From an uncultured Gammaproteobacteria bacterium (GTDB lineage Bacteria; Patescibacteriota; Patescibacteriia; Buchananbacterales; UBA6539): 64,000 bases of DNA. The notes under the pieces are model-generated. The model worked only from the letters and a program-made list of their open reading frames with translations, did no database searches and was not told the DNA's origin. The position numbers were made by a program, and so were the translations under genes. The stretch spans positions 24,890-88,889 of the forward strand of contig CAZINP010000005.1 of assembly GCA_964540635.1 (NCBI GenBank), given 5' to 3'. Shown here in pieces: positions 17,836 through 61,223 of this stretch (its first letter is position 1; each line of letters begins with the position of its first letter).

Positions 17836-18039
17836 ATGACATCGATTACCGATAGTTGGCAGTCGGTGTTAAACCGACTAAAAAACGTTTTGGAAGAACT
17901 TGACATGAAAAGTTGGATTTACCCTCTCAATCTCCACTCCTACCAAAACGGGGTGCTGAGTGTAGAGGTTCCAACCGATTTCTTTCGCGGCTGGATAAAT
18001 GAAAATTATCTGGCGCTGATAGAACAAGCCTGTCACTAA
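17836..18039 (+). CDS. dnaA: DnaA-like N-terminal domain I, ending at an in-frame TAA
   Basis: WQSVLNRLKNVLEEL..WIYPL..L.V.VP..F...WINENYLALIEQ matches DnaA domain I; same reading frame as the next ORF. Confidence 0.6.
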   Translation: MTSITDSWQSVLNRLKNVLEELDMKSWIYPLNLHSYQNGVLSVEVPTDFFRGWINENYLALIEQACH

Positions 18040-18042
18040 ACG

Positions 18043-19176
18043 TTGCCCGATTTCAAGGGCATTCAAATTCTTGTCAACGAGCATTCCGCTCAGCTTGACG
18101 AGGAGACAGAGCTTGCCAAGGGCAAGCAAGCACAACCGGCATCTGCCGAAAAAGACAAAGCGACAGCCAAACAACGAACTTGGCTGATTGAACGCTTTGT
18201 GGTTGGCCCTGAAAACCGAGTGGCCCACGCGGTTGCCACCAGCGTTACCGAAAAAATAGAGGGGTGGCCGGAATGGCCGATTGTTTACCTCTATGGCCCG
18301 TGTGGGGTTGGCAAAACGCACTTGTTAAAAGGCATTGCCGAAATTGCTTATGCCAAGCAATGCCGGCAAAAATTGATAAGTGCCGAAGCCCTACTTAACG
18401 AATTTTCGGCCTCTATCTCCGAGAAGACCAGTGAGTCGTTTCGCAGGAAGTATCGCTCTTTAAGATTGCTCTTGATAGACGACGCAGATTTCCTACTTAA
18501 TGGGAATAAAATAAAATTCCGCGAGGAATTAGTCTTTCTCATTGAAGCGATCATTGGCAATCACGGTTGCGTGGTGTTTTGTGCCAACAACACGCCTCAA
18601 AAAACGCCAAGCACCAATGTTAAGCTTAACTCATTGCTGGTCTCAGGCCTGACAATTGAGATTAAAGCTCTTGGGAAAAAAACGCTCGAAGAAATTATTG
18701 AATATCGAGCGAAAAGAAAAAAAATCAGCCTCAAAAAAGAGGAAATAGAGGCAATTGCGGCAAGATGCTCAGACGTTCGAGAAGCGCTCGGCATCCTGAG
18801 TGGCATTAGGCTGCTCTCAAGCTCTTACGACCGTCCGGTTGATAGCGAGATCTTGGGCGAAGCCTGGGGGCACCTTAGCCCCAAGCAGGATTCACCACTA
18901 ACCATTCGTCGCATCCAAGAAGTAGTTGCCAAGTATTTCAGGATAAGACCGGAACTGCTAAACGGAAAGTCTCGAACTCACACTGTGAGCTATCCGAGAC
19001 AAATCGCCATGTACCTTTGCCGGAAATTTTTCCCGGATAAACCGATCAAGGAGATCGCCATAGCCTTTGGCAGGGATTACAGCACCGTGATCTATGCCTG
19101 CAAACAAATAGAGGAGGGCGACCTTGCCTCCCCTACAGACCTAAAAGCAATTGAAGAATTGCTCATCAAGGCCTGA
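18043..19176 (+). CDS. dnaA: DnaA-like domains II-IV (AAA+ ATPase plus C-terminal DnaA-box-binding domain)
   Basis: GPCGVGKTHL Walker A, LLIDDADFL Walker B, C-terminal RPELLNGKSRTHTVSYPRQIAMYLCRKF; ORF begins at TTG one codon after the TAA; GC about 50% against about 38% background. Confidence 0.7.
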   Translation: MPDFKGIQILVNEHSAQLDEETELAKGKQAQPASAEKDKATAKQRTWLIERFVVGPENRVAHAVATSVTEKIEGWPEWPIVYLYGPCGVGKTHLLKGIAEIAYAKQCRQKLISAEALLNEFSASISEKTSESFRRKYRSLRLLLIDDADFLLNGNKIKFREELVFLIEAIIGNHGCVVFCANNTPQKTPSTNVKLNSLLVSGLTIEIKALGKKTLEEIIEYRAKRKKISLKKEEIEAIAARCSDVREALGILSGIRLLSSSYDRPVDSEILGEAWGHLSPKQDSPLTIRRIQEVVAKYFRIRPELLNGKSRTHTVSYPRQIAMYLCRKFFPDKPIKEIAIAFGRDYSTVIYACKQIEEGDLASPTDLKAIEELLIKA

Positions 19177-19177
19177 A

Positions 19178-19212
19178 TTGCCGCTTAAGTCCAAAACTTG
19201 CGGCTTTTTTAT
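19178..19212 (+). terminator. Rho-independent terminator after the dnaA-like gene
   Basis: GCCGC-ttaagtccaaaactt-GCGGC-T6. Confidence 0.6.
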
Positions 19213-19261
19213 ATAATAAAAAGCCCGGAGTAAACCGGACTAAAGCGACAAGGCCAAACTG

Positions 19262-19669
19262 TCAGCTTGTCGGAATCTGAATTCTTTTGCCACATCCCGG
19301 GCATTGAAAATTCTTTGTGACTGCGTCATCACTTGAGATGTAGCCAAACCAAGCCTCGAGTGCCTGACTTGCCACTTGACCTAAACTGCAACCGCGACGT
19401 TGCGCCTCAGCCGAAAGCCAATTTAGGGTTTCTTGGTTGATTTTTGACAAATCAACCTGAACCAGCAAAGGATTTTCGGGAGCATCTCCCATTTTATCCG
19501 AATTGGGTTCAAGAATTTTTGCCCCCTTTTTTCGAAAAAGAGCCAGCGTTGAATTGATGGCAAAAATTGCCAAATCAATTGGGCTGAGGCCGCAAGCGGC
19601 GGCCGCATTTTTCAGCGCCAAGAATAAATCTGGCGTAACTTTCAAAACCCGATACTTTCTTACTTCCAT
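19262..19669 (-). CDS. Hypothetical protein with ribbon-helix-helix-like segment and C-terminal CPxCG zinc ribbon
   Basis: 135 aa; LSAEAQRRGCSLGQVASQALEAWF (RHH-like), FQCPGCGKRIQIP; GGAGG SD 5 nt before ATG; GC-elevated. Confidence 0.45.
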   Translation of the reverse strand: MEVRKYRVLKVTPDLFLALKNAAAACGLSPIDLAIFAINSTLALFRKKGAKILEPNSDKMGDAPENPLLVQVDLSKINQETLNWLSAEAQRRGCSLGQVASQALEAWFGYISSDDAVTKNFQCPGCGKRIQIPTS

Positions 19670-19748
19670 TTGGTCCTCCGTTTCGGTCGGTTTTGTGAAT
19701 ATTTAATCTAAATTAAAACGACAAAAATGTCAAATTATTCAAATAATT

Positions 19749-20117: not shown

Positions 20118-20118
20118 A

Positions 20119-20661: not shown

Positions 20662-20741
20662 ATATATAAATTAACTTGACTTTTTATTAAATAATGCTAA
20701 TATTTAACTTCGTTTAAACCGTACAACAGAGGAGATTAGCA

Positions 20742-20957
20742 ATGGAAAACGAAAGGAAATTTTGGGCTGAAATGTTTATCAGCCAAGCGCTGGCGGCTCA
20801 TTTTTCAGCCGCCGAAGTCTTTACCAGATTTGGCCTGGCCTGCTGCACTGATTGCATGGCAGCAAAATCAGAAACTGTTCGCATGGCCTGCGAGGCCTAC
20901 AATATTGACCTTGAAGCACTCTTGTTGGCACTCAACAGCTTGGAAATACCAAGTTAA
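20742..20957 (+). CDS. DUF1858 (hybrid-cluster-protein-associated redox disulfide) domain protein
   Basis: 71 aa; conserved GLACCTDC cysteine motif. Confidence 0.55.
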   Translation: MENERKFWAEMFISQALAAHFSAAEVFTRFGLACCTDCMAAKSETVRMACEAYNIDLEALLLALNSLEIPS

Positions 20958-20979
20958 AAAAACGCAATCTTTGCTCTTT

Positions 20980-21003
20980 ACACGCCACTTGGCGTGTTTT
21001 TTT
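20980..21003. terminator. Rho-independent terminator
   Basis: ACACGCC-actt-GGCGTGT-T6 after the DUF1858 gene; also at the 3' end of the convergent csaA-like gene. Confidence 0.7.
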
Positions 21004-21337
21004 AAAACATCTTATTACCCAAGGCAACATCTTTATCGGGCGAAATCAAAACCACACCATCGTTATCATCAGCAAGTCCAAGGGTTAAAACCTCGGAAAC
21101 AAAAGGGCCGATTTGTTTTGGAGAAAAATTAACAACACCCAAAACCTCCTTGTGCAAAAGATCTTCTTTGGTGTAATTTTTTGTAATTTGAGCTGAAGAC
21201 TTTTTGACACCGATTTCCGGGCCAAAATCAATCAATAATTTGTACGCCGGCTTTCTTGCTTCCAAAAAATCTTCCACTTTGATAATTCTACCAACCCTAA
21301 TGTCAACCTCCTCAAAATTTTTATACGAGATAACCAC
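21002..21337 (-). CDS. tRNA-binding domain protein (CsaA / EMAP-like OB fold)
   Basis: 111 aa; DIRVGRIIKVE...KLLIDFG tRNA-binding arm signature. Confidence 0.75.
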   Translation of the reverse strand: MVISYKNFEEVDIRVGRIIKVEDFLEARKPAYKLLIDFGPEIGVKKSSAQITKNYTKEDLLHKEVLGVVNFSPKQIGPFVSEVLTLGLADDNDGVVLISPDKDVALGNKMF

Positions 21338-21341
21338 AATT

Positions 21342-21764: not shown

Positions 21765-21768
21765 AAGA

Positions 21769-22128: not shown

Positions 22129-22134
22129 AAAAAA

Positions 22135-22608
22135 TTATAAATCATTAACTTCGGTTAATTCATATTCCAAAATTACATCATCTTGGCCAAAAAGAAATTT
22201 TCCTTTGAATTTCCTATCATCCAAAAACAAAGGCAGCCAATAAACATCATCCGGCCACATTTCTTGAAAAGGAATTTTATCTATATCAAACCATTGAGGC
22301 CTCATTTCTTCGCTCTCGCTTGGTTCGCCTAAAAAATTATGCGCCTTAAAAATATGAACTTGTAAAATTTCTTGGTTACCTTGAAACTCAAAATCAATAA
22401 TTCCAAACTTCTCTAAATTGTTTGCCTTAATCCCGGCTTCTTCTTCAAGTTCTCTGACAGCTGCCAAATCAATGGTTTCGCCAGCTTCAACCTTACCGCC
22501 AAAACCATTCCACCTTCCATTACCAAAGCCGCGCTTTTTAAAGCCCAATAAAATTCTTTGATTTTGATGAATTATGCAGAGAGTTAAATTTCTTTTGAAA
22601 TTATTTTC
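22135..22608 (-). CDS. NUDIX hydrolase
   Basis: Start moved to MENNFKRN (ATG overlaps secA stop); Nudix box GGKVEAGETIDLAAVRELEEEAGI. Confidence 0.8.
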   Translation of the reverse strand, partial: ENNFKRNLTLCIIHQNQRILLGFKKRGFGNGRWNGFGGKVEAGETIDLAAVRELEEEAGIKANNLEKFGIIDFEFQGNQEILQVHIFKAHNFLGEPSESEEMRPQWFDIDKIPFQEMWPDDVYWLPLFLDDRKFKGKFLFGQDDVILEYELTEVNDL

Positions 22609-25330
22609 CATGGCACTGCTTAAACTTTTTGCCCGAACCGCATGGACACAAATCATTTCGCCCCACTTTAACGCCGTTATAGTGCGTTTGGGCTTGATCA
22701 ATGGAATCCTGTCCGGCCCTCTCTTTTGCTTGTTTGTCCTGAGGAGTTTGATCGGCAATTTGAGCAATTGAGGATTTTAACCCCGAACCGGCAGACGGTG
22801 CGTTAAAAACTAAATTCTTTGGCTGAGTGGATGGCGTCGGAACAAAATTTGCCGCAAAGCCCGCCTTGAAAATGGCATAAACAATTTGTTTTCTAATCAT
22901 CACCAATAGTTCTTTAAACATGCCAAAACTCTCGCGCTTATATTCAATTAACGGATCACGTTGACCATAACCGCGCAAACCAATGCCGGTTCTTAAATGA
23001 TCAATTGCATCCAAATGTTCAATCCAAAGAGTGTCAATGCTTCTTAAGGCAATTCCTTTTTCAATTTGGCGCATTGCATCATCTTTGCCAACAACTTTTA
23101 CAACCTTCTCTTCCATGTCATTGTAGGTCTCTACGGCCAAACGATAAATATAGCCAATTAATTTTCCACGAGAACTGTTATCCTCAATGTCATTACCCGC
23201 TTCAGAAGCAATTTCATTCAATTTTAAACGCAAGTTTGGATTTACAATAAAAATTGTTGAAATAACCTCGTAAATCTCATTCAAGTCCCAAGTATTTTCA
23301 TCGGCTGACGCAGTATGAAAATTAACCACTTCGGTAATTTCTTCCAAAACCAAATCCAAAACAATTGCCTTCAAATCTTGCATATCAAGAACTTGACGCC
23401 TCTTTTTATAAATTGTTTCTCTGTGTTTGTTTAAAACGTCATCATATTCAACCAAATTTTTTCTGGTGTCAAAATGATAACCTTCCACTTTTTTTTGCGC
23501 CGATTCCAATGATTTGGAAATTAACCTGTTTTCAATCGGCATATCATCCGGCACTTTTAGCGTCTCCATCATTTTCTTTATTCTTTGCCCGCCAAATATT
23601 CTCATCAAATCATCATCAACTGAAACGTAAAATTGGGTAAGCCCCGGATCGCCTTGACGTCCGCCACGACCACGAAGCTGATTATCAATTCTTCTTGATT
23701 CATGTCGTTCAGTGCCAATAATGCATAAACCGCCCAAATCCCTGACTCTAATTTCCTCTTCTTTATTGCCGTCTTCACCGCCGAGCTTAATATCCACACC
23801 GCGGCCGGCCATGTTTGTAGCCACCGTGACAGCGCCCAACTTACCGGCGTTAGCAATAATATGAGCTTCTTTCTCGTGAAATTTTGCATTTAAAATTTGA
23901 ACTTCAATGCCTTCACGGCGTAAAAGTTCGCCAAGTAACTCGTTCTTTTCAATTGAGATTGTACCGATCAAAACCGGTTGGCCCAATTCGTGACGATGCT
24001 TAACTTCCTGAATAACCGCCTTAAATTTACCTTCTTCATTTTTAAAAATTTTGTCCGGCAAATCTTTTCTGGCCATGCCCTTGTTTGTCGGAATTACGGT
24101 TACGTCAAGTTTATAAATTTTAGAAAACTCTTCGGCTTCAGTTGCGGCCGTACCGGTCATACCGGCCAATTTATTGTATAAACGAAATAAATTCTGGAAA
24201 GTAACGGTGGCCAGGGTTCGACTTTCTTTTTGAACAGCAACTCCTTCCTTGGCTTCAATTGCTTGATGCAAGCCCTCGGAATAACGACGGCCATACATCA
24301 TACGGCCCGTAAATTCATCAACAATTATCACTTCCCCATCTTTGACAACATAGTCACGATCGCGCTTAAACAAAGCATGGGCGCGCAAAGCCTGCTCAAT
24401 GTGGTGAACTTCAGAAATGCCGGCATCGGTATAAATATTTCCCAACCCAAGCCACTTTTCAATTTTGTTAATTCCTTCGTCGGTCAAAGTGGCCGCGCGC
24501 ATTTTCTCATCAATGTTATAATCCTCGTCTTCTTTTAACTGAACCACCAATTTGGCGAATTTGTAATATTTATCGGTTGAATCCGCATCAGGCGAAGAAA
24601 TAATCAACGGTGTTCTGGCTTCATCAATTAAAATGCTGTCAACTTCGTCAACAATGGCATAGTTTAATTCACGCTGGACCATCATCTCAATATCACCGAC
24701 CATATTATCGCGCAGATAATCAAAACCGAACTCATTATTGGTACCATAAGTTATATCGGCTCTATAAGCATCTTTTCTGGGAACTTGTTTTAGATGAACC
24801 AATTTTTCGTCTTTGGCGTTTTCATTTGTATAATCCGGATCATAAACAAAAGCACCTTCGTGAATAACAACACCGACACTCACGCCCAGAGCATGATAAA
24901 TCGGGCCCATCCAACCGCAGTCGCGTCTGGACAAATAATCATTAACCGTTACCAAATGGCAACCATTGCCGGTCAATGAATTCAAATATAAGGCTGTTGT
25001 GGCTGAAAGAGTTTTACCTTCACCGGTTTTTTGTTCGGCAATTTGACCTCGATGCAAACAAACACCAGCCATAAGCTGAACGTCATAATGTCTGATGCCA
25101 AGGGTTCTTTTTGCCGCTTCGCGCACAGTGGCAAAAGCCTCGGGTAAAATATCATCCAAACCCTTGCCTTGACTGAGTAAATCTTTAAACTTTTGCGTTT
25201 GAGCCTTAAGTTCGTCATCTGATAATTGGCTAATTTTTTTCTCAAATTCATTAATCTGCTCAACTAACGGGGTTAAGCTTTTTATATATTTTTCATTGGC
25301 ATCGCCGATTATTTTAGAAAAAATTCCCAT
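22601..25330 (-). CDS. secA: Preprotein translocase ATPase SecA
   Basis: 909 aa; DEAD-motor domains, C-terminal zinc finger CPCGSGKKFKQCHG. Confidence 0.95.
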   Translation of the reverse strand: MGIFSKIIGDANEKYIKSLTPLVEQINEFEKKISQLSDDELKAQTQKFKDLLSQGKGLDDILPEAFATVREAAKRTLGIRHYDVQLMAGVCLHRGQIAEQKTGEGKTLSATTALYLNSLTGNGCHLVTVNDYLSRRDCGWMGPIYHALGVSVGVVIHEGAFVYDPDYTNENAKDEKLVHLKQVPRKDAYRADITYGTNNEFGFDYLRDNMVGDIEMMVQRELNYAIVDEVDSILIDEARTPLIISSPDADSTDKYYKFAKLVVQLKEDEDYNIDEKMRAATLTDEGINKIEKWLGLGNIYTDAGISEVHHIEQALRAHALFKRDRDYVVKDGEVIIVDEFTGRMMYGRRYSEGLHQAIEAKEGVAVQKESRTLATVTFQNLFRLYNKLAGMTGTAATEAEEFSKIYKLDVTVIPTNKGMARKDLPDKIFKNEEGKFKAVIQEVKHRHELGQPVLIGTISIEKNELLGELLRREGIEVQILNAKFHEKEAHIIANAGKLGAVTVATNMAGRGVDIKLGGEDGNKEEEIRVRDLGGLCIIGTERHESRRIDNQLRGRGGRQGDPGLTQFYVSVDDDLMRIFGGQRIKKMMETLKVPDDMPIENRLISKSLESAQKKVEGYHFDTRKNLVEYDDVLNKHRETIYKKRRQVLDMQDLKAIVLDLVLEEITEVVNFHTASADENTWDLNEIYEVISTIFIVNPNLRLKLNEIASEAGNDIEDNSSRGKLIGYIYRLAVETYNDMEEKVVKVVGKDDAMRQIEKGIALRSIDTLWIEHLDAIDHLRTGIGLRGYGQRDPLIEYKRESFGMFKELLVMIRKQIVYAIFKAGFAANFVPTPSTQPKNLVFNAPSAGSGLKSSIAQIADQTPQDKQAKERAGQDSIDQAQTHYNGVKVGRNDLCPCGSGKKFKQCHGK

Positions 25331-25452
25331 ATATATTAGTTAAATTTAATTACAATATTTTACAATAATTTATGATAATTGACAAGGGTTAATTTTTATG
25401 GTAATTTTGGGTGTGGCTTATTGGCAGAGGCACAAACTAGAGGAGGTGCAAG

Positions 25453-25833
25453 ATGCCTAAAAAGGTTTTGTACGTTGACGATGACAAAGACCTGGTCAAC
25501 CTGATCAGGTTGTTCATCGAACAAATGGGCCACAGTTTTATTACGGCCCAAAATCCGACCCAGGCCATTGGGATCCTCCACGAAGGTGGGGTTGACCTGG
25601 TCATTACGGACTTTGACCTCAACTGTCGGGTCTTTGGTACGGATCTTTTCTACATGATCCGCGAACTTGGTTATGACATACCGGTCATTCTTGTTTCCGG
25701 CACGCTTAACCTCCGAAAAGACCCGAGAATCGACCCCGAAATTTGGGGTCTGCTCTCCAAATTTCTGGAGAAGCCTTTTACAAAATCTGATTTTCAGGCT
25801 GCAATTGCGGCTGCCTTGAAATCAACGGAGTGA
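25453..25833 (+). CDS. Single-domain response regulator receiver (CheY-like), compositionally atypical
   Basis: 126 aa; VDDD, ITDFDL (phospho-Asp), VSG, EKPF Lys; AGGAGGTG SD 5 nt upstream; about 50% GC. Confidence 0.75.
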   Translation: MPKKVLYVDDDKDLVNLIRLFIEQMGHSFITAQNPTQAIGILHEGGVDLVITDFDLNCRVFGTDLFYMIRELGYDIPVILVSGTLNLRKDPRIDPEIWGLLSKFLEKPFTKSDFQAAIAAALKSTE

Positions 25834-25853
25834 CTACGGTCACTCTTTTTTTA
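25829..25853 (+). terminator. Rho-independent terminator overlapping the REC stop codon
   Basis: GTGAC-tacg-GTCAC followed by T7. Confidence 0.65.
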
Positions 25854-47457: not shown

Positions 47458-47733
47458 CTAATATTTAATCGTAAAATCAGAAAACTCGCCGGTCGGCTTT
47501 GACCAGCTTTGGTCAATTTTCTGTACCCTCGCAAAACTTATACCATTATAGCAGAAGTCGATAAAATCTTTCAAGTCCCCCTCATCCCCTTCGGCTAAAA
47601 CAAAAACCTTACTATTTGGGTCATTCTTAACCCAGCCGGTCAGATTTAATCTTTTTGCCTTGCTTAAAGCTGAATAGCGAAAACCAACCCCCTGGACAAC
47701 CCCCGATATACCCAGCTCAACTCTTTTTAACAT
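47458..47733 (-). CDS. acyP: Acylphosphatase
   Basis: 91 aa; VQGVGFR and GWVKN motifs. Confidence 0.85.
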
Positions 47734-49174
47734 ATAACTTATTTACAAAACCATTAACTGCATCAACCTCAATAATTTCACCATCAGAAATAATTTTTGT
47801 TGCATTTTTTGTACCAATAATACATGGGATTTTTAATTCACGGGCGACAATTGCCGCATGACAAGTTAATCCGCCTTCGTCCGTTACGATTGCTTTGGCT
47901 TTTTTCATTATTGGCAACATTTCCGGTCTGGTCATACCGGTTACCAATATGTCGCCATTTTTCATTTTAGAAAAACCGCTAACCCCAAAAATAATCCTGG
48001 CACGGCCTATAGCTTTACCACTACTGGCCACCATTCCAAATATTTTATTTTGTTTTTTATGAGTAAATATGAATTCCTTAGGTATTTTTTTAATATTATT
48101 TTTTCCTTTTAAAATCCTAGGCTTTTTGTTTTTAAAATTAAAATCAAAATAAATAAATTCTTTGCGTTTTTTGATTTCTAATGGAGTAATTTTTTTATTT
48201 TTAATAAGCTTTATAATTTCAGCCGCGGTAAAAAATTGTAAATCATTTAAAGAATAACCAAAACGTTTTCCTAACTCCTGACGAATATCATCAGAATAAT
48301 AAATTGTCTTTACGAATAATTCTTTTCTTATATCGTGCCACGGACCGACATCGTCAATTAAACGAATTATATTTACTGCCGATTTACTTAAATTATGATC
48401 TTTTATTATCTTCTCCTTCCTGGATTCAATTGCCTTAGAATAATTGTATAAGTGTTTAAATTCTTTTTTTAAATTATTTATATTAGAACCATATTGCCCA
48501 ATCCTTAGTTTAAAAAAATTTTTATTAATCACTTTTTTGCCGTCGTGGCCGGTCATTAACCATTCATATTTTTTACAATGTTTGTATAAATCAACTTTAA
48601 TATCTTTACCGGATATTTTTTTGATCGCAATTTTAATCAAATCTCTTGATTCAAGATTTAGATAACTTGGCTTAGAGATCGCGGCTAAATCAGCCAAATC
48701 ATTTTTAGACAGCTGCCAGGATTTAAAAGTTTTTTGAAAAATTTGAGGAAAAACGAAATCAAACGGTTCGGCAAAAAAACCAATAGAAAAATTTTCTTTA
48801 TAATTTTCAGTAAAAATTTCTAAATACTCAAAAAGTCGATCAACCGTCAAAGAACTAACATCGCTTGATTGATAATCTTTAATTGTCAAATCGATTTTTT
48901 CTTTCAGTGCTTGATATTGCTTTTCAATATTAAGACGAAATTTTTTGTTTTTGAATTTTTTAAAACATAAATAGCCAATTTTTTCCAATTCAGAAGCCAA
49001 TGTACACCACTTAAACGGTTCGTTGGCGCGAAAAATTACAACATTACGATTAAAACCGAAACCATAAACTTTTCGCATGCCATAGGTCATGGCAATAGCC
49101 GCCTCAGAACAAATCCAATAAATGGATTCAGCTTCATCAATATCCCATTTTTGCTTTTTAACTTCCATTGTCAT
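47717..49174 (-). CDS. PEP-utilizing-enzyme mobile (phospho-His swivel) domain protein, paralog A (rifampin-phosphotransferase-like, lacking ATP-grasp)
   Basis: Start set at MTMEV (ATG overlaps TGA of upstream ATP-grasp ORF: ATGA); C-terminus [21 protein letters not shown] = PEP-utilizers His motif; about 400-aa N-terminal region of unknown function. Confidence 0.7.
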
Positions 49175-50115
49175 AGGGTGGTTATCGGGCGCGATTGAGT
49201 TATATAAAACTTTCCTCCTGCCATTGCCCACTCAATATCTTGGGGTTTTTTATAATGTTTTTCAATAACCAAACAAATCTTGGAAAACTCAATAATCTGT
49301 TTAGTGTTGAGTTTTTGATTTTCTCTTTCTGATAATAAAACTTTTTTCCAAACGTTACCGCCGGCCACTTTTTTAACAAGCATCTTTTCCTGAGATGAAA
49401 TATTTATATCCATTATGGAAAAATTTCTTTTATCAATCACATAACTGTCAGGCGTTATCTGCCCGGAAACAATTGCTTCACCTAAACCAAAGCCGGCCTC
49501 AATTATCATTTGATTTTTATCCTTGGTAACCGGATGAACGGTAAATGATATGCCGGAAATTTCTGAATCAATCATTTTCTGCACCACCACCGCAACGGAC
49601 ACTTTTGAATTTCTTAAACCTTTTTCAAAACGATAAAATATTGCCCGTGGCGTAAACAAAGAAGACCAACAATTCTTAACTCTACCCAATAGATTTTTTT
49701 CCGTGGTATTAAGATACGTTTCCAACTCCCCCGCCCAACTTGCCTGAGAAGAATCCTCGGCCGTTGCCGAAGAGCGTACAGCCACAAATTTTGACTTCAT
49801 TTTTTTAAATTCTGAAATAATTTCCATTCCAAGATCTTTTGGTATTCTGGCATCATGAATCAAGTCACGAATAGTTTCAGAAGCTTTTTCAACAGAGTTA
49901 ATATTTTTATAATTAATTTTATTCAATTGCGATTCGATTTCTATATTCAAATCGGTTTCGGCTAAAAATTGGTCAAAAGTCTGAGCCAAAATCACAAAAC
50001 CGCCTGGAACCGGGATTTTTGCTTGGGTCATTTCACCCAAAGACGCGCCCTTGCCACCGGCCAATTTTACATCTTTTTTTGAGATTTTTCCAAATGACAA
50101 AATATTTTTTGACAT
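49171..50115 (-). CDS. Stand-alone PPDK_N-type ATP-grasp (nucleotide-binding) domain protein
   Basis: Start set at [29 protein letters not shown] (PEP synthase/PPDK N-terminus); ends ...[10 protein letters not shown] at the canonical domain boundary; no His or TIM-barrel domain. Confidence 0.7.
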
Positions 50116-50119
50116 AATA

Positions 50120-51559
50120 TTAATACCCTTGAGGCTCCCCATCTTTAATTAAATTAAAATTACTACCATCATCTCGGCGGCAATCAACGTTAATTGAATC
50201 CATTACAATAAAATCACAATGAACCTTGGCTTGATTAAAACTTGGATGATTTTTTGGTACCCCAAGCGATCCATTACTGCCAACAGCCACATGAATAGTG
50301 CCATAAATTTTTTCACCTTCACTTGAGCCAATGTCGTTATCTGCTTTATTACGACACGCCATTGTATTCGTGCCAATACCCAATTCGGCCAAACGATAAG
50401 CTTGATTTGATTCATTGTTCCCGCCGTTTAGATATCTTTTTATTGATTCAACAAGCGGGTTACCGGAATCTTGATTGATGGGTGAATTATTTATTTCCAC
50501 AACTTCGCCCTCTTTAATTTTTAAAACAACAGGACCATATTGCTTAACTTGATCTAACATATGTTCACCTCCAATTGGTCCGTTTACAACCAACACCCCA
50601 TTGCTACCGGCCCAATCGGGCGAACAGGCCCATTCGCCAATCGGATAATTTCCCATTGCGCCTGGCTGCGAAAAATCCTCGCCTGAACCGCTCTTGGTTT
50701 CATCTATCAATTCCAACCAAAGATCTGTCCCTTCCGGCGAAGTAAGATGAACGCTTCTAACGTCTTTCATTAATTTATCAATCTTTTCATTTCTTTCCAA
50801 TATAGCCTCCACCGACTCCTCCACGGCCCCCTTTGTCAGAATCTCATGCGGATTTTTACCTTTAGTGATAGATATTAATCGGCAACTATTTTTTTTGACA
50901 TAATTTTTTAGCTTTTCCCACTGTTCATCAGTTAACTCGTCCCCTAAATTTTCTAAATTACCTTTCGCCTTCGCTCCGGCCAAGGTCTGGTTTATTTTTT
51001 CGCGCTCAGGCAATCCGCCGCGAATAGCTGCCCCGGTCTCACGCGAATGAGAACGCGACATCGAGGTTAAAATCAGAATGGGTGAATTATTTTGATTTTC
51101 CATTTCCGATAATAAATAATCGCCCATATCTTCAGCCGAACGCTGAGTTTCGGGCAAAACTCTTATTCTAAAATTTCCCTTTGTTTTTTGAGACAAATCC
51201 GTTCTGAAGATTAACTCATTTTGGATAGCACTAATGAGTTCAGGCTGAGACTCAATCACCCCGATATCGGTTACAACCATCATACTTTCTTTTTTTGGAT
51301 TGAACCCAAAGGAATTAATAATGTTTCTAGCAACCACCGTCATTCTTCTTTTTATCTCCCGCTGTTCCCCAGTCATTTCTTTTGGCTCATCAACCAAAAC
51401 CTCGTGAGTAAAATCCGAACGACCATCTTGACGATTTTTCAACCCTAAAAGCTTCTGATGCAATTGTCGAGTTTGCGCGCTTGTTTCTTGATCTGGATTA
51501 TATCCAGCTTGCTGCAACTCCTCTGGGGAATTTTGATAAAAGAAATCTTTTAATCTCAT
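50120..51559 (-). CDS. Aminopeptidase, peptidase M29-like (AmpS/aminopeptidase T family)
   Basis: Start set at MRLKDFF; C-terminal LAELGIGTN...GEKIYGTIHVAVG...HCDFIV resembles the M29 LGEVAL...DENASCHLAIG metal-site region; my recollection of the family motif is approximate. Confidence 0.45.
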   Translation of the reverse strand: MRLKDFFYQNSPEELQQAGYNPDQETSAQTRQLHQKLLGLKNRQDGRSDFTHEVLVDEPKEMTGEQREIKRRMTVVARNIINSFGFNPKKESMMVVTDIGVIESQPELISAIQNELIFRTDLSQKTKGNFRIRVLPETQRSAEDMGDYLLSEMENQNNSPILILTSMSRSHSRETGAAIRGGLPEREKINQTLAGAKAKGNLENLGDELTDEQWEKLKNYVKKNSCRLISITKGKNPHEILTKGAVEESVEAILERNEKIDKLMKDVRSVHLTSPEGTDLWLELIDETKSGSGEDFSQPGAMGNYPIGEWACSPDWAGSNGVLVVNGPIGGEHMLDQVKQYGPVVLKIKEGEVVEINNSPINQDSGNPLVESIKRYLNGGNNESNQAYRLAELGIGTNTMACRNKADNDIGSSEGEKIYGTIHVAVGSNGSLGVPKNHPSFNQAKVHCDFIVMDSINVDCRRDDGSNFNLIKDGEPQGY

Positions 51560-52388: not shown

Positions 52389-52399
52389 ATTTGAATTTA

Positions 52400-53833
52400 T
52401 TATTTAATAATCTTTACTGTTCCGTTATTGGCATTTACTTCAACCAAATCACCGTCTGATAAGACTTTAGTGGCAATTTTGGTGCCAATTACGCAAGGGA
52501 TGCCAAGCTCTCGCGCCACGATTGCGGCATGGCAAGTTATCCCTCCGTCATCAGTAATAATCGCAACGGCTTTTTTCATGGCAATAAGGTGCTCCGGTCT
52601 GGTCATGGGAGAAACGAGTATGTCACCAGACTTAACCTTTTTAACATCATCAATACTTCTAACAATCTTAACTGTTCCCTTGGTCATCCCGATATTAGCC
52701 ACAAAACCCTTTAGCAATTTGATGTCCTTAGTCTTAACCCTACTTATCGCCTCAAAGAATGATTCAGCCTTTTTACCAACAAAGATTTCTTGGATTTTAC
52801 CTTTTTTATATACAAATATGCAACCTTTCATTCGCTCTTTCAAACGCAAAAGTGGAAACTTACCCGCTAAAATCTTGGGCAATTCATCTGACTTGCAATA
52901 ATCCAACAAATCTCGACTAATGCCTCTTCTTCTTGAAATTTCACTTAAAATCTTATCTAGCAAAGTAACAAATGTTAAAGTATATTCTTTGCGCAAATCC
53001 TGCCATTTTGTAAAAGTCTCTGCTAATTCCGAAAAAGAAATAATTTCAGGTGTAAATTTGTATTTTTTTATTAAAGCATTTTTTTGCGCTTTAATTTTTT
53101 TAAAATCAATTTTTTTAAAACCATCATTTAACATTTTTATTTCTTCCAAGGCCATTTTTTTGGTATAAGGAATGTAACCAACGTAACTGCTTTTTAGCCA
53201 GGCGTAATTTAAAAGATGGCGACTCAAAGCTTTATTGAATTTTTCTTTATCTTTGATTAATGAAATTTTTTTCAATTCAATCCTCTCTCTGGCAATAAAA
53301 GATAATTCGGTAGGCGCTGATAAAAGAGAATATATTTTTTGATATTCTTTAATGCCCTTTTTATTGCAAAAATTTTTTAATATATAATCTAAACGACTAT
53401 CAGCGTAAAACATAAACCCATCAAGAAATCCCGGCATTGAAATCTCATAACGATAAAAATTATAAATTCCTTGAGTCCATTCCAACAACTCATCATTTGA
53501 TAAGTCACTGAGATTAACGGAAAAAGATTTTTGAAAATTTTCCATCAATTTTGGGTATTTCTCAACCCAAGTTCCATACAGCTTCAATATTTCATTTTTA
53601 TTTTTCATGTATCGAGTAACAATAAAAGAACCAATTTCTTTGTGCTGCCTTGAAGTTGTCAGCCAGTCACCTTGTCCGTTTTTATAATAAGAGATACAAA
53701 ATGAATAAGCCAAAAAACTTGAATCATAAAGCTTGCTCGTGAAACCGGCCCCGGTCATCTCAGTTAAAGCGGGAACACCGTTGAAATGTTCAATATAAAA
53801 TTTTATTTTTTTTAATCTGTTTAAATTAACCAT
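52400..53833 (-). CDS. PEP-utilizing-enzyme mobile domain protein, paralog B
   Basis: Start set at MVNLNRLKK; C-terminus [21 protein letters not shown]. Confidence 0.65.
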   Translation of the reverse strand: MVNLNRLKKIKFYIEHFNGVPALTEMTGAGFTSKLYDSSFLAYSFCISYYKNGQGDWLTTSRQHKEIGSFIVTRYMKNKNEILKLYGTWVEKYPKLMENFQKSFSVNLSDLSNDELLEWTQGIYNFYRYEISMPGFLDGFMFYADSRLDYILKNFCNKKGIKEYQKIYSLLSAPTELSFIARERIELKKISLIKDKEKFNKALSRHLLNYAWLKSSYVGYIPYTKKMALEEIKMLNDGFKKIDFKKIKAQKNALIKKYKFTPEIISFSELAETFTKWQDLRKEYTLTFVTLLDKILSEISRRRGISRDLLDYCKSDELPKILAGKFPLLRLKERMKGCIFVYKKGKIQEIFVGKKAESFFEAISRVKTKDIKLLKGFVANIGMTKGTVKIVRSIDDVKKVKSGDILVSPMTRPEHLIAMKKAVAIITDDGGITCHAAIVARELGIPCVIGTKIATKVLSDGDLVEVNANNGTVKIIK

Positions 53834-53837
53834 ATTA

Positions 53838-55292
53838 TTAATTAAGTTTGACAACAAATCCGCGGTCACAATCGACTTTTACCCGATCGCCACTTTTGAG
53901 TAGCTGTGTCGCAACCTTTGCACCAACAATGCAAGGAATATTTAATTCACGCGAAACAATAGCTGCGTGGCAAGTCATTCCGCCTTCATCGGTAATTAAG
54001 GCCTTAGCCTTTTTAATTCCAACGATAAACTCGGGCGAAGTCATTGAAGTGACCAAAATATTGCCTTTTCTCATCTTACCCACCTCTCTGGCGGTCTTAA
54101 CAACACTAACCCGACCGATTAAATTCTTACCGCCGCTCACCACCACCCCTGTAATTTTTTCTTGTTTCTTGTTAACAGTGATATTTTGATATTTTTTAAA
54201 GATAGCTTTGGCCTTATTCCCCGAGATATAAACTGATTTATTCAAATTCTCGGAATATAAACTCATGAAAAAATTTGACCGTTTTAAAATCTCTGAGTCC
54301 GAAATTTTTTTACCACCTTTAAGCAACAAGTCTAAATCGTTTATTGTATAAAAAGGCAAATCTCTAGGACTGACGCTAAATCTTTCTGCGCTTTCATATA
54401 AAAACAAATCAATATAATGATTTGCCAAAAATATATAATATTTTCGTAGATCTTGCCACCAGACACAAAAAGCAAGGCGGTTAGAAATTTTCACAATCTC
54501 TTTGGAAATTTTGTATTTATTGATTAAAAAATTTTTTTCTTTTTTCACTTTATTCCCATAGTTCTCTAATTCAATAATTTTTGATTTAACGCTTTTGGAA
54601 GGAATGTCTTTAAGCTCGGCTAAAAAATATTTTTCATCCAAAATTTGAGTGTGATGATAGCTATTTAATATCCAAAAATATTTATCCAAATATTTTTTTA
54701 TTTTAGAAGCAAATTCTTTCTTGCCCAGGTAAGGATAAATTTTTAGCAAATCAAGGTTGGCCTTTTGGTAAAAAGAAAGTTTATCGGGCGCGGAAAGCCT
54801 TTCATACAAAAATGTAAAATTTTTTGACGTGGCAACTTCCTCTAATTTTTCTCGCAAGATTACTTCCCCGCCCCAATTTGAAATCTCCGGCAAAAACCCG
54901 ACTCGCCAAAACTCCAAATAATATTTTTCCCATTTTTTATAGACAAGATAAAAATCTCTTTGACTTAAAGACTTTAAACTCCTGGGAGTAATTTTTTTTT
55001 GGAAAGCTAGATATTGCTTAAGCTGATTTTGCCATTGACGATAATATCTCTTAAATTTTTTATCGTTTAAAACGAATCGATTAAAATTTTTTTTGCCGCT
55101 TTCAATCAGCGCCTCTTGGTCAAGAGTATAAATTGATTTCTCGCGAAAATAAAAACCGAGGCAATCCGGCCAAGAAACAAATTCTGGCGAATATAAAGCA
55201 AACGCCTCGGTAAAAAAATTAAGATATAAAATTTTTGCGTCTATTGGGCCCCACCTAAACAAGTCGTTTTTGGGGTTTATATTTATTTTCAT
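53838..55292 (-). CDS. PEP-utilizing-enzyme mobile domain protein, paralog C
   Basis: 484 aa; C-terminus GGMTCHAAIVSRELNIPCIVG. Confidence 0.7.
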   Translation of the reverse strand: MKININPKNDLFRWGPIDAKILYLNFFTEAFALYSPEFVSWPDCLGFYFREKSIYTLDQEALIESGKKNFNRFVLNDKKFKRYYRQWQNQLKQYLAFQKKITPRSLKSLSQRDFYLVYKKWEKYYLEFWRVGFLPEISNWGGEVILREKLEEVATSKNFTFLYERLSAPDKLSFYQKANLDLLKIYPYLGKKEFASKIKKYLDKYFWILNSYHHTQILDEKYFLAELKDIPSKSVKSKIIELENYGNKVKKEKNFLINKYKISKEIVKISNRLAFCVWWQDLRKYYIFLANHYIDLFLYESAERFSVSPRDLPFYTINDLDLLLKGGKKISDSEILKRSNFFMSLYSENLNKSVYISGNKAKAIFKKYQNITVNKKQEKITGVVVSGGKNLIGRVSVVKTAREVGKMRKGNILVTSMTSPEFIVGIKKAKALITDEGGMTCHAAIVSRELNIPCIVGAKVATQLLKSGDRVKVDCDRGFVVKLN

Positions 55293-55320
55293 AATAAAAA
55301 TAAACTGCGCCCGATTACTT

Positions 55321-56643: not shown

Positions 56644-56647
56644 AAAA

Positions 56648-57952: not shown

Positions 57953-58051
57953 AATGGAAATTTTATTATATATTTGGTAAAATTAATACAATTGAAATCA
58001 ATTGCATTATTCCTAATTCTACAATAAAATGCCTCTTAAGGCAAGTTTAAT

Positions 58052-59434
58052 ATGAAACTAAAATACCGCCGAATTTTATACTTATCTTTTATTACCGCTT
58101 TTATAATTATCACTCCCTTGGTTATACTTTACACGGCCGGATATGGGTACAATTTCAAGAAAGGACGGATTGAAAAAACGGGAATTTTATACGTGGACTC
58201 AAAACCAAAAGAAGCTGATATTTACATTAACGGTCAATTTTCCGGAAAGACCGACAAAAGGTTCCCGGCCATGCTGCCGGATAAATATCAGCTTGAAGTT
58301 AAAAAAAACGGTTATCATTCCTGGCAAAAAGAAATTGAAATAAAAAGTAACTTAACTGAATTTGCCGAAGATATAGTTTTATTTAAAGATGCCCTGCCTA
58401 TTAATTTGGTTGAGGGGCAAATCAAACTTTTTGTCGCCTCGCCCGATCAACGAAAGATTATTTATTCTTCGATTTCCAGTACAACCGAAGATCTTATAAT
58501 TATGGATCTTAAAAATAAATCAACTGAAAAATTAAAATCTTATAACCTTAAGAATAAACCCGAAATAGAATTTTTAAACTGCTCAACTGAAAAAAATCTA
58601 ATGGCTTTTAAAGTTATTTCTAATGATCCTGAATCTTATTTAATAGTCAACACCCAAACCAATATTACCAGCACTCTTTCAAACCCACCCAAGGATACAT
58701 TCTTGAATTTGGATTGGGGCCTGGACAAAGATGTTTTTCTTTATGGCCTAGGGCAAAAAGGATTGTACCGAATCGACCAATCCTCTCAAAAAACTGAATT
58801 GATCTTATCCGGCAATATTTTGAGTTTTACTTTTGATAAAAACACGCTCTTTTATATAACTCAAGAAAATGGCAATAATTATTTAAACAAAAAAGTTTTT
58901 GGAGTTAATGAATCCGAAAAATTAAATGATATAAAGAAAATAAAATTACCAATAAATTCAAATTTTTCTTTACGCAAATCTCCAAGTGGTTACATTACCC
59001 TCTTGGACAGACTCAGCCATGATCTTTTTATCATAAGTGATAAATCTTTTGAAAGCGAAGATATCGAAAATAATATAATATTACAAGACAAGGCCAATGA
59101 TTTAACTTGGTCTAAAGGTGGCGGACAAGTATTGTTCTATAATGATTTTGAGATTTGGACATATGATTTTTTATCTCAGCAAAAAAATTTATTAACCCGA
59201 TATGGTCAAATAATAAAAAAAGCAAGGTGGTATCCGGACAATAAATACGTTATATATCTTGTAAACAACAAGATTGGTACAATTGAAGCGAATTCTTCCA
59301 AAATTAAAAATGATACAATATTAGCCGAGATCTCGGAAATAAATGACTACGTTCTTGAAGACCGCGGTCAAGATTTATTTATACTTGGTCGAGCTGGAAA
59401 TAAAATTGGCACATACCAATTACAATTACAATAA
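58052..59434 (+). CDS. Membrane-anchored PEGA-domain protein with C-terminal beta-propeller-like region
   Basis: 460 aa; N-terminal TM, PEGA-type motif (SKPKEADIYINGQ), WD/TolB-like repeats downstream. Confidence 0.5.
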   Translation: MKLKYRRILYLSFITAFIIITPLVILYTAGYGYNFKKGRIEKTGILYVDSKPKEADIYINGQFSGKTDKRFPAMLPDKYQLEVKKNGYHSWQKEIEIKSNLTEFAEDIVLFKDALPINLVEGQIKLFVASPDQRKIIYSSISSTTEDLIIMDLKNKSTEKLKSYNLKNKPEIEFLNCSTEKNLMAFKVISNDPESYLIVNTQTNITSTLSNPPKDTFLNLDWGLDKDVFLYGLGQKGLYRIDQSSQKTELILSGNILSFTFDKNTLFYITQENGNNYLNKKVFGVNESEKLNDIKKIKLPINSNFSLRKSPSGYITLLDRLSHDLFIISDKSFESEDIENNIILQDKANDLTWSKGGGQVLFYNDFEIWTYDFLSQQKNLLTRYGQIIKKARWYPDNKYVIYLVNNKIGTIEANSSKIKNDTILAEISEINDYVLEDRGQDLFILGRAGNKIGTYQLQLQ

Positions 59435-59448
59435 AAAAAGCCACCTTC

Positions 59449-59886
59449 TCAGAGGCAGCAAATGATTTGAGCAAGATCATAGTCACAATTGAACGAAGAG
59501 GTATATGTTGGAACCAAACAAGTTCCACAACCGGCCTTTCCTGCCAACTCAAGATCAATCTCATGATTATTTCCGATAACGAAAGTCTGATTCGGGCAAA
59601 GACCCAAACTCTTACAAGGATCAACAAAATCCTTTTTTATTTTTGGAAAAAACTTGAAAAAACCATCGAAAACCCCACTGCTTAAATCAGCTCTGGCCAG
59701 CGTTTGATCCAAATCAAGTCGCAAAAGCTCTAAATCGGCGTCTGATGCCGAATAAAGAGCAATTTTTTTTGATCGGCAATATCTGACCAGAACAACAAAA
59801 CCCGACCTAACCGGCATGGCGTTTTCCGGATCATCTTCGCACAAAATTGTGCCATAAATATCAAGGAACACGGCTCTGATTACCAT
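59449..59886 (-). CDS. HAD-like small protein with degenerate motif I (DxYGT) and Cys-rich C-terminus
   Basis: Start set at MVIRAVFLDIYGTIL (GGAGG SD 8 nt upstream); second Asp of the DxDx(T/V) motif replaced by Tyr; GC about 45%. Confidence 0.35.
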   Translation of the reverse strand: MVIRAVFLDIYGTILCEDDPENAMPVRSGFVVLVRYCRSKKIALYSASDADLELLRLDLDQTLARADLSSGVFDGFFKFFPKIKKDFVDPCKSLGLCPNQTFVIGNNHEIDLELAGKAGCGTCLVPTYTSSFNCDYDLAQIICCL

Positions 59887-59977
59887 TGTAAATTCCTCCA
59901 TTTTTTTCAGCATAACACTAAATATTTTTTTGTCAAATAAAAAAGCGCCAAAAAAGGCACTTTCTTATTTTATAAAA

Positions 59978-60706
59978 TTAATTCTTATTTTTTTCTTTTT
60001 CGGCAACCAACCGAGCGGCTTTCAATAAACTATCAAACGATTCTCCCCCATCGCCCCACCAGCCCTTTAGAATTTCAAAAGTCATGGTCTGCTGCTGACA
60101 ATAAAAATTATTCACATCTGTAATTTCTAGTTCACCGCGGCCGGAAGGCTTTAAGGTTTTAATCACATTCCAAACTTGCTTGTCATACATATAAACACCA
60201 ACAACCGCCAAATCACTCTTTGGCTCCTGAGGTTTTTCTATAATATTTATTATCTTATCTCCCTTAACTTCAGCTACACCAAAAGACTTGGGATTATCAA
60301 CCGATTTAAGAAATATCTTGGCACCAATTTCCTGGGAGGAAAAATCACTAACGGCTTTGGCGATGCTATCTTCCAAAATATTATCGCCCAATATCACACA
60401 AATCTTTTCATGGTCAGAAAAATCCTCACATAAACTTAAAGCCTGGGCAATACCTCCGGCTTCTTCTTGAACGCCAAAAGAAAATTTCGCTCCAAAATCC
60501 TTGCCCGAGCGCAGAAGCTCCAGAAATTGACCGGCATGACCCTTACCGGAAACAATCATTATGTCCTTAACACCGGCTTCAACTAAAGTTTGGATTGGAT
60601 AATAAATCATTGGTTTATTGTAAACCGGCAATAAATGCTTGTTGGTTACCCTGGTTAGTGGATCTAAACGCGAGCCGGTTCCGCCCGCCAAAATAATACC
60701 CTTCAT
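59978..60706 (-). CDS. rmlA: Glucose-1-phosphate thymidylyltransferase-like nucleotidyltransferase (short RmlA-type)
   Basis: 242 aa; MKGIILAGGTGSRLDPLT signature. Confidence 0.75.
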   Translation of the reverse strand: MKGIILAGGTGSRLDPLTRVTNKHLLPVYNKPMIYYPIQTLVEAGVKDIMIVSGKGHAGQFLELLRSGKDFGAKFSFGVQEEAGGIAQALSLCEDFSDHEKICVILGDNILEDSIAKAVSDFSSQEIGAKIFLKSVDNPKSFGVAEVKGDKIINIIEKPQEPKSDLAVVGVYMYDKQVWNVIKTLKPSGRGELEITDVNNFYCQQQTMTFEILKGWWGDGGESFDSLLKAARLVAEKEKNKN

Positions 60707-60778
60707 AAATTAAAATTTTAATGTTTTAGCCCTTAATCTAAATAAATACTATAATATAATTAAATTTTTTACAAGTAA

Positions 60779-60815
60779 AAAAGCTCCGGACAAAAGTCGC
60801 CGGAGCCGGATTTTT
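60779..60815 (-). terminator. Rho-independent terminator downstream of the GC-rich Zn-ribbon gene
   Basis: Plus strand A6-GCTCCGG-acaaaagtcg-CCGGAGC; on minus strand hairpin followed by T6. Confidence 0.65.
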
Positions 60816-60833
60816 AGCCGTTAATATCGGCTG

Positions 60834-61223
60834 TCAGCCGGGCAGACCGCAGGTGCAGTGAGCACCGCACTGGCTGCACATGGGCGCGCCACCTTCGGCC
60901 AGAACAACCTGGACCGGGAAATTCTCAATTTCCACGAGCAACGCGGCATGCTCAGCCTTGAGCTCATCCAGGCGCTGAGCAATCTCAGCTCGACGGGACT
61001 CCAGCCCCGAAATCTGGCCATGGAGATACTGCCAGGGATGACAGACGGGCATTGTGCCCTCGGCATGGAAAAGCTTAATCTGCTCCGCTTCATCCGGAGC
61101 AGTCTCGGCTTCAGTCTTCAGGCGGGCAATTGCCCCGTCAATCTGATCAAGGCGAGACTGAAGCTCGCCGATGCGATCAAAAACTGCTGCGGCCTGGCCG
61201 GCCAAAAACTCTTTTGTTCTCAC
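60834..61223 (-). CDS. Coiled-coil protein with C-terminal Cys cluster (CxxCx3CxC), strongly GC-atypical
   Basis: Start set at GTG (MRTKEFL...) 9 nt after AAGGAG; about 58% GC against about 38% background. Confidence 0.5.
   Translation of the reverse strand: MRTKEFLAGQAAAVFDRIGELQSRLDQIDGAIARLKTEAETAPDEAEQIKLFHAEGTMPVCHPWQYLHGQISGLESRRAEIAQRLDELKAEHAALLVEIENFPVQVVLAEGGAPMCSQCGAHCTCGLPG

Follow-up and report, generated by a model that had tools for sequence, protein, structure and literature searches.

How do a few small genes with canonical Shine-Dalgarno (SD) sequences come to stand among the housekeeping genes of a bacterium that hardly uses such sequences? The question is raised by a stretch of 64,000 nucleotides, referred to here as the window (contig CAZINP010000005.1 of assembly GCA_964540635.1, positions 24,890 to 88,889). 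The window is part of an AT-rich chromosome of the Patescibacteria (candidate phyla radiation, CPR), and its housekeeping genes initiate without SDs from AT-rich leaders. A first-pass annotation had pointed to five exceptions: a dnaA-like gene (17836..19176), a ribbon-helix-helix (RHH)-like gene (19262..19669), a response-regulator receiver (REC) gene (25453..25833), a haloacid dehalogenase (HAD)-like gene (59449..59886), and a coiled-coil gene with a cysteine cluster (coiled-coil/Cys; 60834..61223). The answer that we favour, with somewhat better than even confidence, is that the set comprises six autonomous accessory cassettes of different ages, which most likely came from outside the core genome and were kept together with a promoter-like site, an SD and a terminator.

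A Shine-Dalgarno-led minority among native genes

The longest non-overlapping open reading frames (ORFs; n=70) of the window were taken as the gene set, with the starts of the candidate genes corrected, and guanine-plus-cytosine (GC) content was recorded for each ORF overall and by codon position. SD strength was expressed as the duplex energy of positions -22..-3 with the anti-SD ACCUCCUUA, the 16S anti-SD of this organism itself not having been seen. On this scale, 64 ordinary ORFs have a mean SD energy of -0.6 kcal/mol, with leaders made up of A/T runs, a GC content of 0.379 +/- 0.031 and a third-position GC content (GC3) of 0.369 +/- 0.043. The five genes pointed out at first were all found as described, and their canonical SDs have energies of -7.4 to -13.3 kcal/mol at a spacing of 5-9 nt to the start. 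A scan of both strands for an SD plus start codon revealed a sixth gene of the same kind that had been overlooked, a DUF1858-like gene at 20742..20957 on the plus strand (GC 0.472). Atypical and native ORFs differ both in SD strength (Mann-Whitney p=3e-5) and in GC (p=5e-7). Moreover, the five ORFs of highest GC among the 70 are all within the seven strongest SDs, for which we estimate a hypergeometric chance of ~2e-6.

The measured GC is 0.474 for the dnaA-like gene, 0.458 for the RHH-like, 0.478 for the REC, 0.411 for the HAD-like and 0.590 for the coiled-coil/Cys gene. All five had been called GC-elevated, which is true of four of them and not of the HAD-like gene (z=1.0; GC3 0.37, as in native genes). 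Given their amino acids, the three ORFs of the 70 with the worst native codon fit are the dnaA-like (z -7.9), REC (-6.0) and coiled-coil (-4.5) genes, the native minimum being -3.3. Taken together, GC, codon usage and tetranucleotide frequencies mark these three as strong outliers and the RHH-like and DUF1858 genes as weak ones, and do not mark the HAD-like gene. GC at first and second codon positions is also raised in the six genes, and their proteins are rich in Ala and Arg and poor in Asn and Lys. Cys is 3.8-fold enriched relative to native proteins: the coiled-coil protein has its CxxCxxxCxC tail, the DUF1858 protein a CC..C motif and the RHH-like protein a CPGC, and the HAD-like and DnaA-like proteins contain several Cys as well. 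All six genes end in a terminator-like hairpin and T-run, as had been said of the original five, and promoter-like sites that pass a consensus scan were identified for four of the six. The description of these genes as compositionally foreign-looking, stand-alone units agrees with their outlying codon usage and GC and with their own terminators.

The native side of the contrast was also described correctly, in that nearly all native genes lack an SD. The leaders of rplL, rplJ, secA, pyrG, mraZ, pilB, iscS and murA are all AT-rich and SD-less. The identity of rplL, rplJ, pyrG, pilB and iscS was confirmed by Pfam, and that of secA and murA by precomputed Pfam labels or homology; mraZ is the label of the first-pass annotation, and the gene downstream of it is rsmH. 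The latter (5334..6281) is the one native gene with a weak GGGAG, which lies in the end of the upstream ORF called mraZ.

Cassettes of apparently different ages

The nearest species-level genomes in GTDB (query: the native His_Phos_1 protein) are Patescibacteria metagenome-assembled genomes (MAGs) of at most 65% identity, none carrying the atypical genes, and are thus too remote for tests of presence or absence. The comparisons below use diverged relatives from three further sequencing runs, namely contigs L002 (77% DNA identity), L110 and L111 (both ~76%), as well as a more remote relative genome of 47% GC (L112). Near-identical contigs (98-99%) came from Logan SRR8925758 (L001 and L003; 99%), ENA ERZ27286469 (L004) and JGI 3300029799 (L113). 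Searches of 5.8 billion and 1.84 billion sequences show the atypical proteins to be orphans or to have one to three relatives each.

Three of the cassettes, coiled-coil/Cys, RHH-like and DUF1858, are old residents. They are in place in relatives that are ~23% diverged in DNA and saturated at synonymous sites, with ratios of nonsynonymous to synonymous divergence (dN/dS) of 0.13-0.21, and have lost neither the SD nor the GC excess there.

The coiled-coil/Cys gene (60834..61223, minus strand) deviates in tetranucleotide usage (z 6.0). It is preceded by a promoter-like site at 61266..61309 (TTGACA, 16 nt, TAAACT) and by the SD AAGGAG at 61233..61238, 9 nt before a GTG start, and is followed by an intrinsic terminator at 60776..60807 (part of a 67-nt structure at -22.1 kcal/mol and z -3.1, in which U6 follows the second, larger hairpin). 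Promoter-like site and terminator are kept in L002, where the SD reads GGAGG. The promoter-like site overlaps a hairpin and T-run that probably terminates rmlD; a transcript from this site would hold only part of the rmlD-side hairpin, a layout that is conserved in L002. The product is an orphan protein of 129 aa, predicted by AlphaFold2 (AF2; mean predicted local distance difference test, pLDDT, 85) to form an antiparallel helical hairpin with the Cys-rich tail at its C-terminus, and its weak Foldseek matches include the Rad50 zinc hook and the coiled-coil/zinc-ribbon proteins MSMEG_4306 and CT398. Its single homologue among 5.8 billion proteins is on L002, where the gene likewise sits between the end of rmlD and rmlA. 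The gene had been said to split the rml locus; its position between rmlA-like and rmlD was correct, but since the same arrangement is found in L002 the locus was not recently split. Protein identity to L002 is 70% for the coiled-coil protein and 93% for RmlA. For the gene, synonymous divergence (dS) is 1.2, dN/dS is 0.16, and substitutions fall 29/18/57 by codon position; the L002 copy has a GC of 0.52 and a GC3 of 0.55, against a GC3 of 0.36 in its neighbours. Because the region has long ORFs on both strands we had also considered a structured RNA, which is ruled out by the codon-position pattern and the dN/dS.

The RHH-like gene (19262..19669, minus strand) has a promoter-like site at 19705..19733 (TTGACA, 17 nt, TAGATT), the SD GGAGG at 19675..19679 (-9.5 kcal/mol; kept in L110 and L112) and a terminator at 19222..19241 (7-bp stem, then TTTTT). 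In L110/L111 an orthologue of 66% identity stands in the gene order DUF1858, His_Phos_1, CoA-binding, RHH-like, fpg; it keeps the SD, has a GC of 0.45, and shows a dN/dS of 0.21 at a dS of at least 1, the native neighbours having dN/dS of 0.07-0.15. The remote relative L112 also carries a homologue (43% identical) beside fpg, with the SD GGAGG and a GC of 0.54, which is higher than that of its SD-less neighbours. On that contig fpg itself is called as two overlapping ORFs (1329-2194; 74 + 214 aa), from a frameshift or sequencing error. The 135-aa product is an orphan with only 3 matches in 1.84 billion representative proteins, and no Pfam, PHROG or NCBIfam RHH profile matched it, even at relaxed E-values. 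Its AF2 model, of moderate confidence (pLDDT 64), predicts a beta-alpha-alpha unit twice (E4-8/H13-25/H30-48 and E68-72/H79-92/H96-113), followed by a C-terminal CPxC. The best Foldseek matches of this model are F-plasmid relaxosome chains, which we take to be TraY (prob 0.99, E 0.045, TM 0.5-0.6), with single-chain Arc, CdbA and VirC2 lower in the list. The RHH identity given to this protein at first has no support from sequence families and moderate support from the predicted fold, and is plausible at the fold level only.

The DUF1858 gene (20742..20957, plus strand; GC3 0.50) follows a promoter-like site at 20676..20703 (TTGACT, 16 nt, TAATAT, with TG) and the SD AGGAG at 20730..20734 (7 nt before ATG; -9.1 kcal/mol), and a sequence scan places its terminator at 20980..21004. 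It encodes a 71-aa DUF1858/redox-disulfide domain protein that matches TIGR03980 with 52.4 bits (cutoff 44.95) and, marginally, PF08984 with 32.5 bits (cutoff 32.2). The orthologue in L110/L111 is in place, with the SD kept, a GC of 0.49, and a dN/dS of 0.13 at a dS of at least 1.

The dnaA-like cassette is the sole demonstrably variable member of the set. In L110 and L111, ~105 bp stand in place of window ~17682..19334, so that the gene is absent. In the window (17836..19176, plus strand) it follows a promoter-like site at 17764..17792 (TTGACT, 17 nt, TAAGGT; read by eye, with a weak -10, and not listed by the consensus scan) and the SD GGGAGA at 17824..17829 (6 nt before ATG; -7.4 kcal/mol), and it ends in a terminator at 19180..19210 (hairpin of -11 kcal/mol, then U6; z -2.8). 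What had been described as a dnaA-like pair is a single reading frame, a divergent full-length dnaA homologue with DnaA_N, AAA+ and DnaA_C (PF11638 56.8 bits, PF00308 104 bits and PF08299 85.5 bits, all above cutoffs), broken by an in-frame TAA at 18037-18039. The TAA aligns with a Glu of the intact homologues P0014 (55% identical, 451 aa) and P0015 (53%, 448 aa). Four bases past it, a TTG opens the 377-aa remainder of the frame, which scores 243.7 bits against TIGR00362, below the cutoff of 343.9. The strain contig L003 (99% identical) carries the same TAA. The interrupted frame may represent a pseudogene, or else a split gene that relies on reinitiation, and would be better annotated as one interrupted dnaA-like pseudogene or split gene than as a pair.

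Only two proteins reach 53-55% identity to this DnaA-like protein, and none of the other DnaAs found exceeds 35%; a scan of JGI metagenomes returned ordinary DnaAs only, again at no more than 35%. In its family, the canonical "SDR" that follows the Walker B strand is replaced by ANN or ANK. We dropped the idea that it is the gene of a chromosomal origin, as there is no DnaA-box cluster near it; the cumulative GC skew is monotonic across the window, and its neighbours are fpg and the RHH-like gene. The nearest homologues are intact and have different surroundings, the gene order being thyX, dnaA, gatB, on contigs that are likewise poor in SDs. One of these, L107, has 5 SD-led genes with a mean GC of 0.571 versus 0.475 for 18 others (p=1e-4). 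On L107 (5167-11356 and 15617-15928) and on L109 (126-2668), the SD-led minority of raised GC again stands among SD-less genes, and consists of tmk, thyX or a thymidylate-synthase-like gene, the DnaA-like gene and small orphans.

For the REC and HAD-like genes, only copies of at least 98% identity were found, which are too close to give a date. The REC gene (25453..25833, plus strand; GC3 0.567) lies antisense between murB and secA, with the strongest SD of the window (AGGAGGT at 25441..25447; -13.3 kcal/mol) and a terminator at 25827..25846 from the sequence scan. It encodes a single-domain response-regulator receiver (PF00072, 54.5 bits, cutoff 30.2), and from its translation the catalytic residues can be read as DDD at 9-11, the acceptor Asp in VITDFD, the Ser/Thr in VSGT and the Lys in EKPF. 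It had been called an orphan receiver, and indeed neither the window ORFs that were scanned (not the full set) nor the Pfam labels precomputed for L001 and L003 show a HisKA or HATPase_c. The one relative found, a 98% copy, has identical junctions in JGI 3300029799. In two remote Patescibacteria (L012, 6759-7100; L014, 6590-6901), the murB-secA spacer holds a same-strand gene that resembles by eye hpf/raiA, a ribosome hibernation factor; the antisense receiver of the window sits where this gene stands in them. The HAD-like gene (59449..59886, minus strand) has a promoter-like site at 59909..59936 (TTGACA, 16 nt, TATGCT, with TG), the SD GGAGG at 59895..59899 (-9.3 kcal/mol) and a terminator at 59440..59459 (sequence scan), and is SD-led at native composition (GC3 0.370, codon-fit z -1.5). 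Its small protein falls below profile cutoffs (PF00702 18.5 bits, cutoff 26.4; PF13242 16.9 bits, cutoff 22), with a dehalogenase-type motif I, DIYGT, visible.

The first-pass annotation had read the whole set as recent piecemeal acquisition from a higher-GC, SD-using donor. As to recency, this is right in spirit for one gene, the dnaA-like cassette, unproven for two, and wrong on timing for the three old residents. As to the donor, none was found, and the relatives whose contigs were read all lie on similar SD-poor contigs.

Origin of the cassettes and alternative explanations

In the explanation that we favour, six small accessory genes, each an autonomous unit that carries its own canonical SD together with an intrinsic terminator and a promoter-like site of the sigma-70 type, would have entered intergenic spacers among housekeeping genes from outside the core genome at different times. 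The flanks of the cassettes in the window are core genes (fpg, secA/murB, rmlA/rmlD). The youngest would be the dnaA-like cassette, missing in sister lineages and apparently knocked out by a GAA-to-TAA-type nonsense change, while the coiled-coil/Cys, RHH-like and DUF1858 cassettes would predate a species- or genus-level split and have been kept by purifying selection. The SDs may have been kept since the host ribosome would still be able to use them, and the GC-richer, more structured start regions may be ill suited to the SD-independent initiation of the host. A foreign origin is the simplest explanation because codon usage, amino-acid usage and the initiation signal shift together.

Several observations weigh against this explanation. 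We found neither a donor nor a mobility gene nor a clear target-site duplication, mobility domains being absent from the scanned ORFs; the edges of the dnaA-like cassette show only a weak 21-nt direct repeat, which may be a target-site duplication or a chance repeat. Three of the six genes (RHH-like, DUF1858, HAD-like) use synonymous codons much as native genes do, their values lying inside the native range. In the DnaA-like and RHH-like families, the GC excess follows the host background (0.47 vs 0.38 in the window, 0.55 vs 0.475 in L107, 0.54 vs 0.44-0.50 in L112), which fits a maintained offset intrinsic to the gene at least as well as incomplete amelioration. At a dS of at least 1.2, by our rough calculation, neutral decay needs a donor GC3 near 0.9 for the coiled-coil gene, and by our own estimate also a transfer just before the split, to leave a GC3 of 0.55-0.62. 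With respect to the start regions, those of atypical genes are more structured than native ones at -30..+30 (p=0.011), but the difference vanishes at -20..+20, and GC-rich genes on contig L013 have SD-less leaders. GC-rich coding sequence alone therefore does not force an SD, and a general need of GC-rich genes for an SD owing to structured starts is a weakly supported idea to which L013 offers a counter-example.

Part of this evidence would also suit a reading in which horizontal transfer is not the cause, and the signature marks a native class maintained by selection: lineage-specific genes that use SD-dependent initiation and have an intrinsic GC excess, for instance for condition-dependent or low-level expression. 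SD and GC excess (roughly +0.05 to +0.10; +0.13 to +0.21 for the coiled-coil gene) are kept in orthologues despite saturated synonymous divergence, and the RHH-like (L112) and DnaA-like (L107, L109) homologues hold the offset over differing backgrounds (0.38 vs ~0.47). The same two-class pattern of SD and GC is seen again in L107, and the coiled-coil gene has a smaller dS (1.19) than the adjacent rmlA (1.72). The six proteins, however, share no common function, the dnaA-like member is dispensable, being absent in relatives and carrying a nonsense codon, the families are tiny and patchy rather than a conserved regulon, and the GC3 offsets of the RHH-like and HAD-like genes are within sampling error. 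We consider a native class unlikely overall, although it is the best placed of the alternatives. A related and doubtful possibility is that the SD/GC signature is a selected feature, a second and separately controllable translational regime, and not a fading mark of horizontal transfer. If so, SD-poor Patescibacteria would maintain a small, conserved class of lineage-specific genes that initiate from SDs, all other genes starting without them.

Another source of such genes could be a mobile gene pool specific to Patescibacteria (plasmids, phages, integrative elements) with higher GC and SD use, of which the cassettes would be remnants, their GC being kept up by frequent recombination and possibly by GC-biased gene conversion. 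The DnaA-like gene does occur in varied contexts, on L107-L109 beside thyX, tmk and small GC-rich orphans, a replication/nucleotide set typical of mobile elements; the predicted fold of the RHH-like protein resembles the relaxosome accessories TraY or VirC2; and single-gene indels exist in the population, as the HD-domain gene described below exemplifies. On the other hand, no integrase, transposase, relaxase or att-like repeat was seen near any cassette. Three scans of viral contigs with the RHH-like, DnaA-like and REC proteins returned no matches, the PHROG matches of the atypical proteins were generic AAA+ or receiver matches only, and three of the cassettes are stably syntenic. We regard a mobile-pool origin as rather improbable. 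Finally, fragments of a higher-GC organism spliced in by assembly or binning, an idea that the compositional contrast alone would favour, can be dismissed as hardly credible: each insert (0.2-1.6 kb) is flanked by native sequence left and right, the diverged relatives of three further runs share these junctions, and mis-assembly is excluded because identical junctions recur in independent assemblies of the same or other samples (SRR8925758, ERZ27286469 and 3300029799).

Returning to the surroundings of the cassettes, the window has a GC of 37.8% and ~70 ORFs in 64 kb, and scans for tRNAs and against Rfam gave no matches in it. Its core genes include a dcw/mur cluster (the gene labelled mraZ, rsmH, a penicillin-binding protein, mur ligases, mraY, ftsW, murG, murB) as well as rplJ, rplL, secA, pyrG, pilB, iscS, nifU, murA, rmlA-like, rmlD and a third dehydratase-like gene. 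Several paralogous PEP-utilizer/PPDK_N genes (47717-49231, 48001-49000, 49171-50142, 52400-53869, 53838-55292) resemble a pyruvate phosphate dikinase that is split and present several times over, and one of them lies in an unusually AT-rich stretch (GC 0.27-0.31, GC3 0.26), an opposite kind of compositional outlier. The density of single-nucleotide polymorphisms among the 99%-identical strain contigs is too patchy to bear on selection. Strain contig L003 has an additional 566-bp segment (1115-1680; window equivalent 22593-22619, at the 3' end of secA) bounded by a 27-bp direct repeat, GCAGTGCCATGGAAAATAATTTCAAAA. This segment is a single-gene indel polymorphism via a short repeat, and encodes a 192-aa protein that by eye resembles an HD-domain protein (motif YIHDIGW; Pfam has none on record for it); the inserted gene and the downstream NUDIX gene both start MENNFK. 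In L010 (1000-9284 and 11305-18000), a Patescibacteria MAG of 38% GC with wide SD use, a run of GC-rich (0.45-0.51) orphan genes adjoins fpg and His_Phos_1, and there is an apparent rRNA region broken by ORFs that resemble LAGLIDADG homing endonucleases by eye.

Relation to known systems

Two of the proteins have well-known counterparts. Like DnaA, the frame at 17836..19176 has domain I, an AAA+ domain with Walker A and B motifs, and the helix-turn-helix of domain IV; unlike DnaA, it falls below the TIGR00362 cutoff, has ANN/ANK for "SDR", is broken by TAA, lacks an origin context and is absent in sister lineages. The product of 19262..19669 is predicted to contain beta-alpha-alpha twice in one chain, as do the tandem RHH proteins TraY and VirC2, but it has no family match, carries an extra C-terminal CPxC hairpin, and is encoded on the chromosome beside fpg with no relaxase nearby. 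Together with the coiled-coil protein, these define orphan families under purifying selection: an fpg-linked tandem-RHH family, an rml-locus coiled-coil family with a Cys cluster, and a divergent DnaA paralogue.

As a whole, the set is of an ordinary kind, compositionally atypical accessory genes; what is unusual is that an SD-poor CPR genome has retained the SD and the GC excess over the long term. Horizontally acquired genomic islets, or ORFan insertions of atypical composition, are usually understood within the Lawrence-Ochman amelioration framework. The cassettes resemble them as short single-gene insertions in spacers, with deviant GC, codon and tetranucleotide usage, a narrow distribution, and one member that is variable and decaying. 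They differ in that three are syntenic at saturated dS with GC excess and SD kept, in having no donor or mobility signature, and in that the contrast extends to the mode of initiation, SD-led cassettes standing in an SD-less host. The inference from atypical GC and foreign signals to recent transfer can fail; here the signature persists through saturated dS under purifying selection. The cassettes also recall phage morons, which are autonomous promoter-gene-terminator units of deviant composition inside prophages, since each is transcribed as a predicted unit of its own and differs in composition from the genes around it; here, however, the units lie among core chromosomal genes rather than in a prophage, and no phage genes or viral relatives were found.

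With regard to initiation, the SDs have persisted under selection, and this alone suggests that ribosomes in an SD-poor CPR bacterium still make use of SDs for a few genes. Our search for literature on SD use in Patescibacteria found nothing relevant. The three conserved cassettes and the decaying dnaA-like one offer loci for the study of SD-dependent versus SD-independent initiation in the CPR. A parallel in this respect is offered by the SD-poor Bacteroidota, which keep residual SD-led genes, as in the autoregulation of rpsU. In both cases, a genome largely without SDs retains strong SDs on a few genes, conserved across relatives; here, in a different phylum, the SDs belong to accessory or orphan genes that are specific to the lineage and show a GC excess, and not to a ribosomal protein gene.

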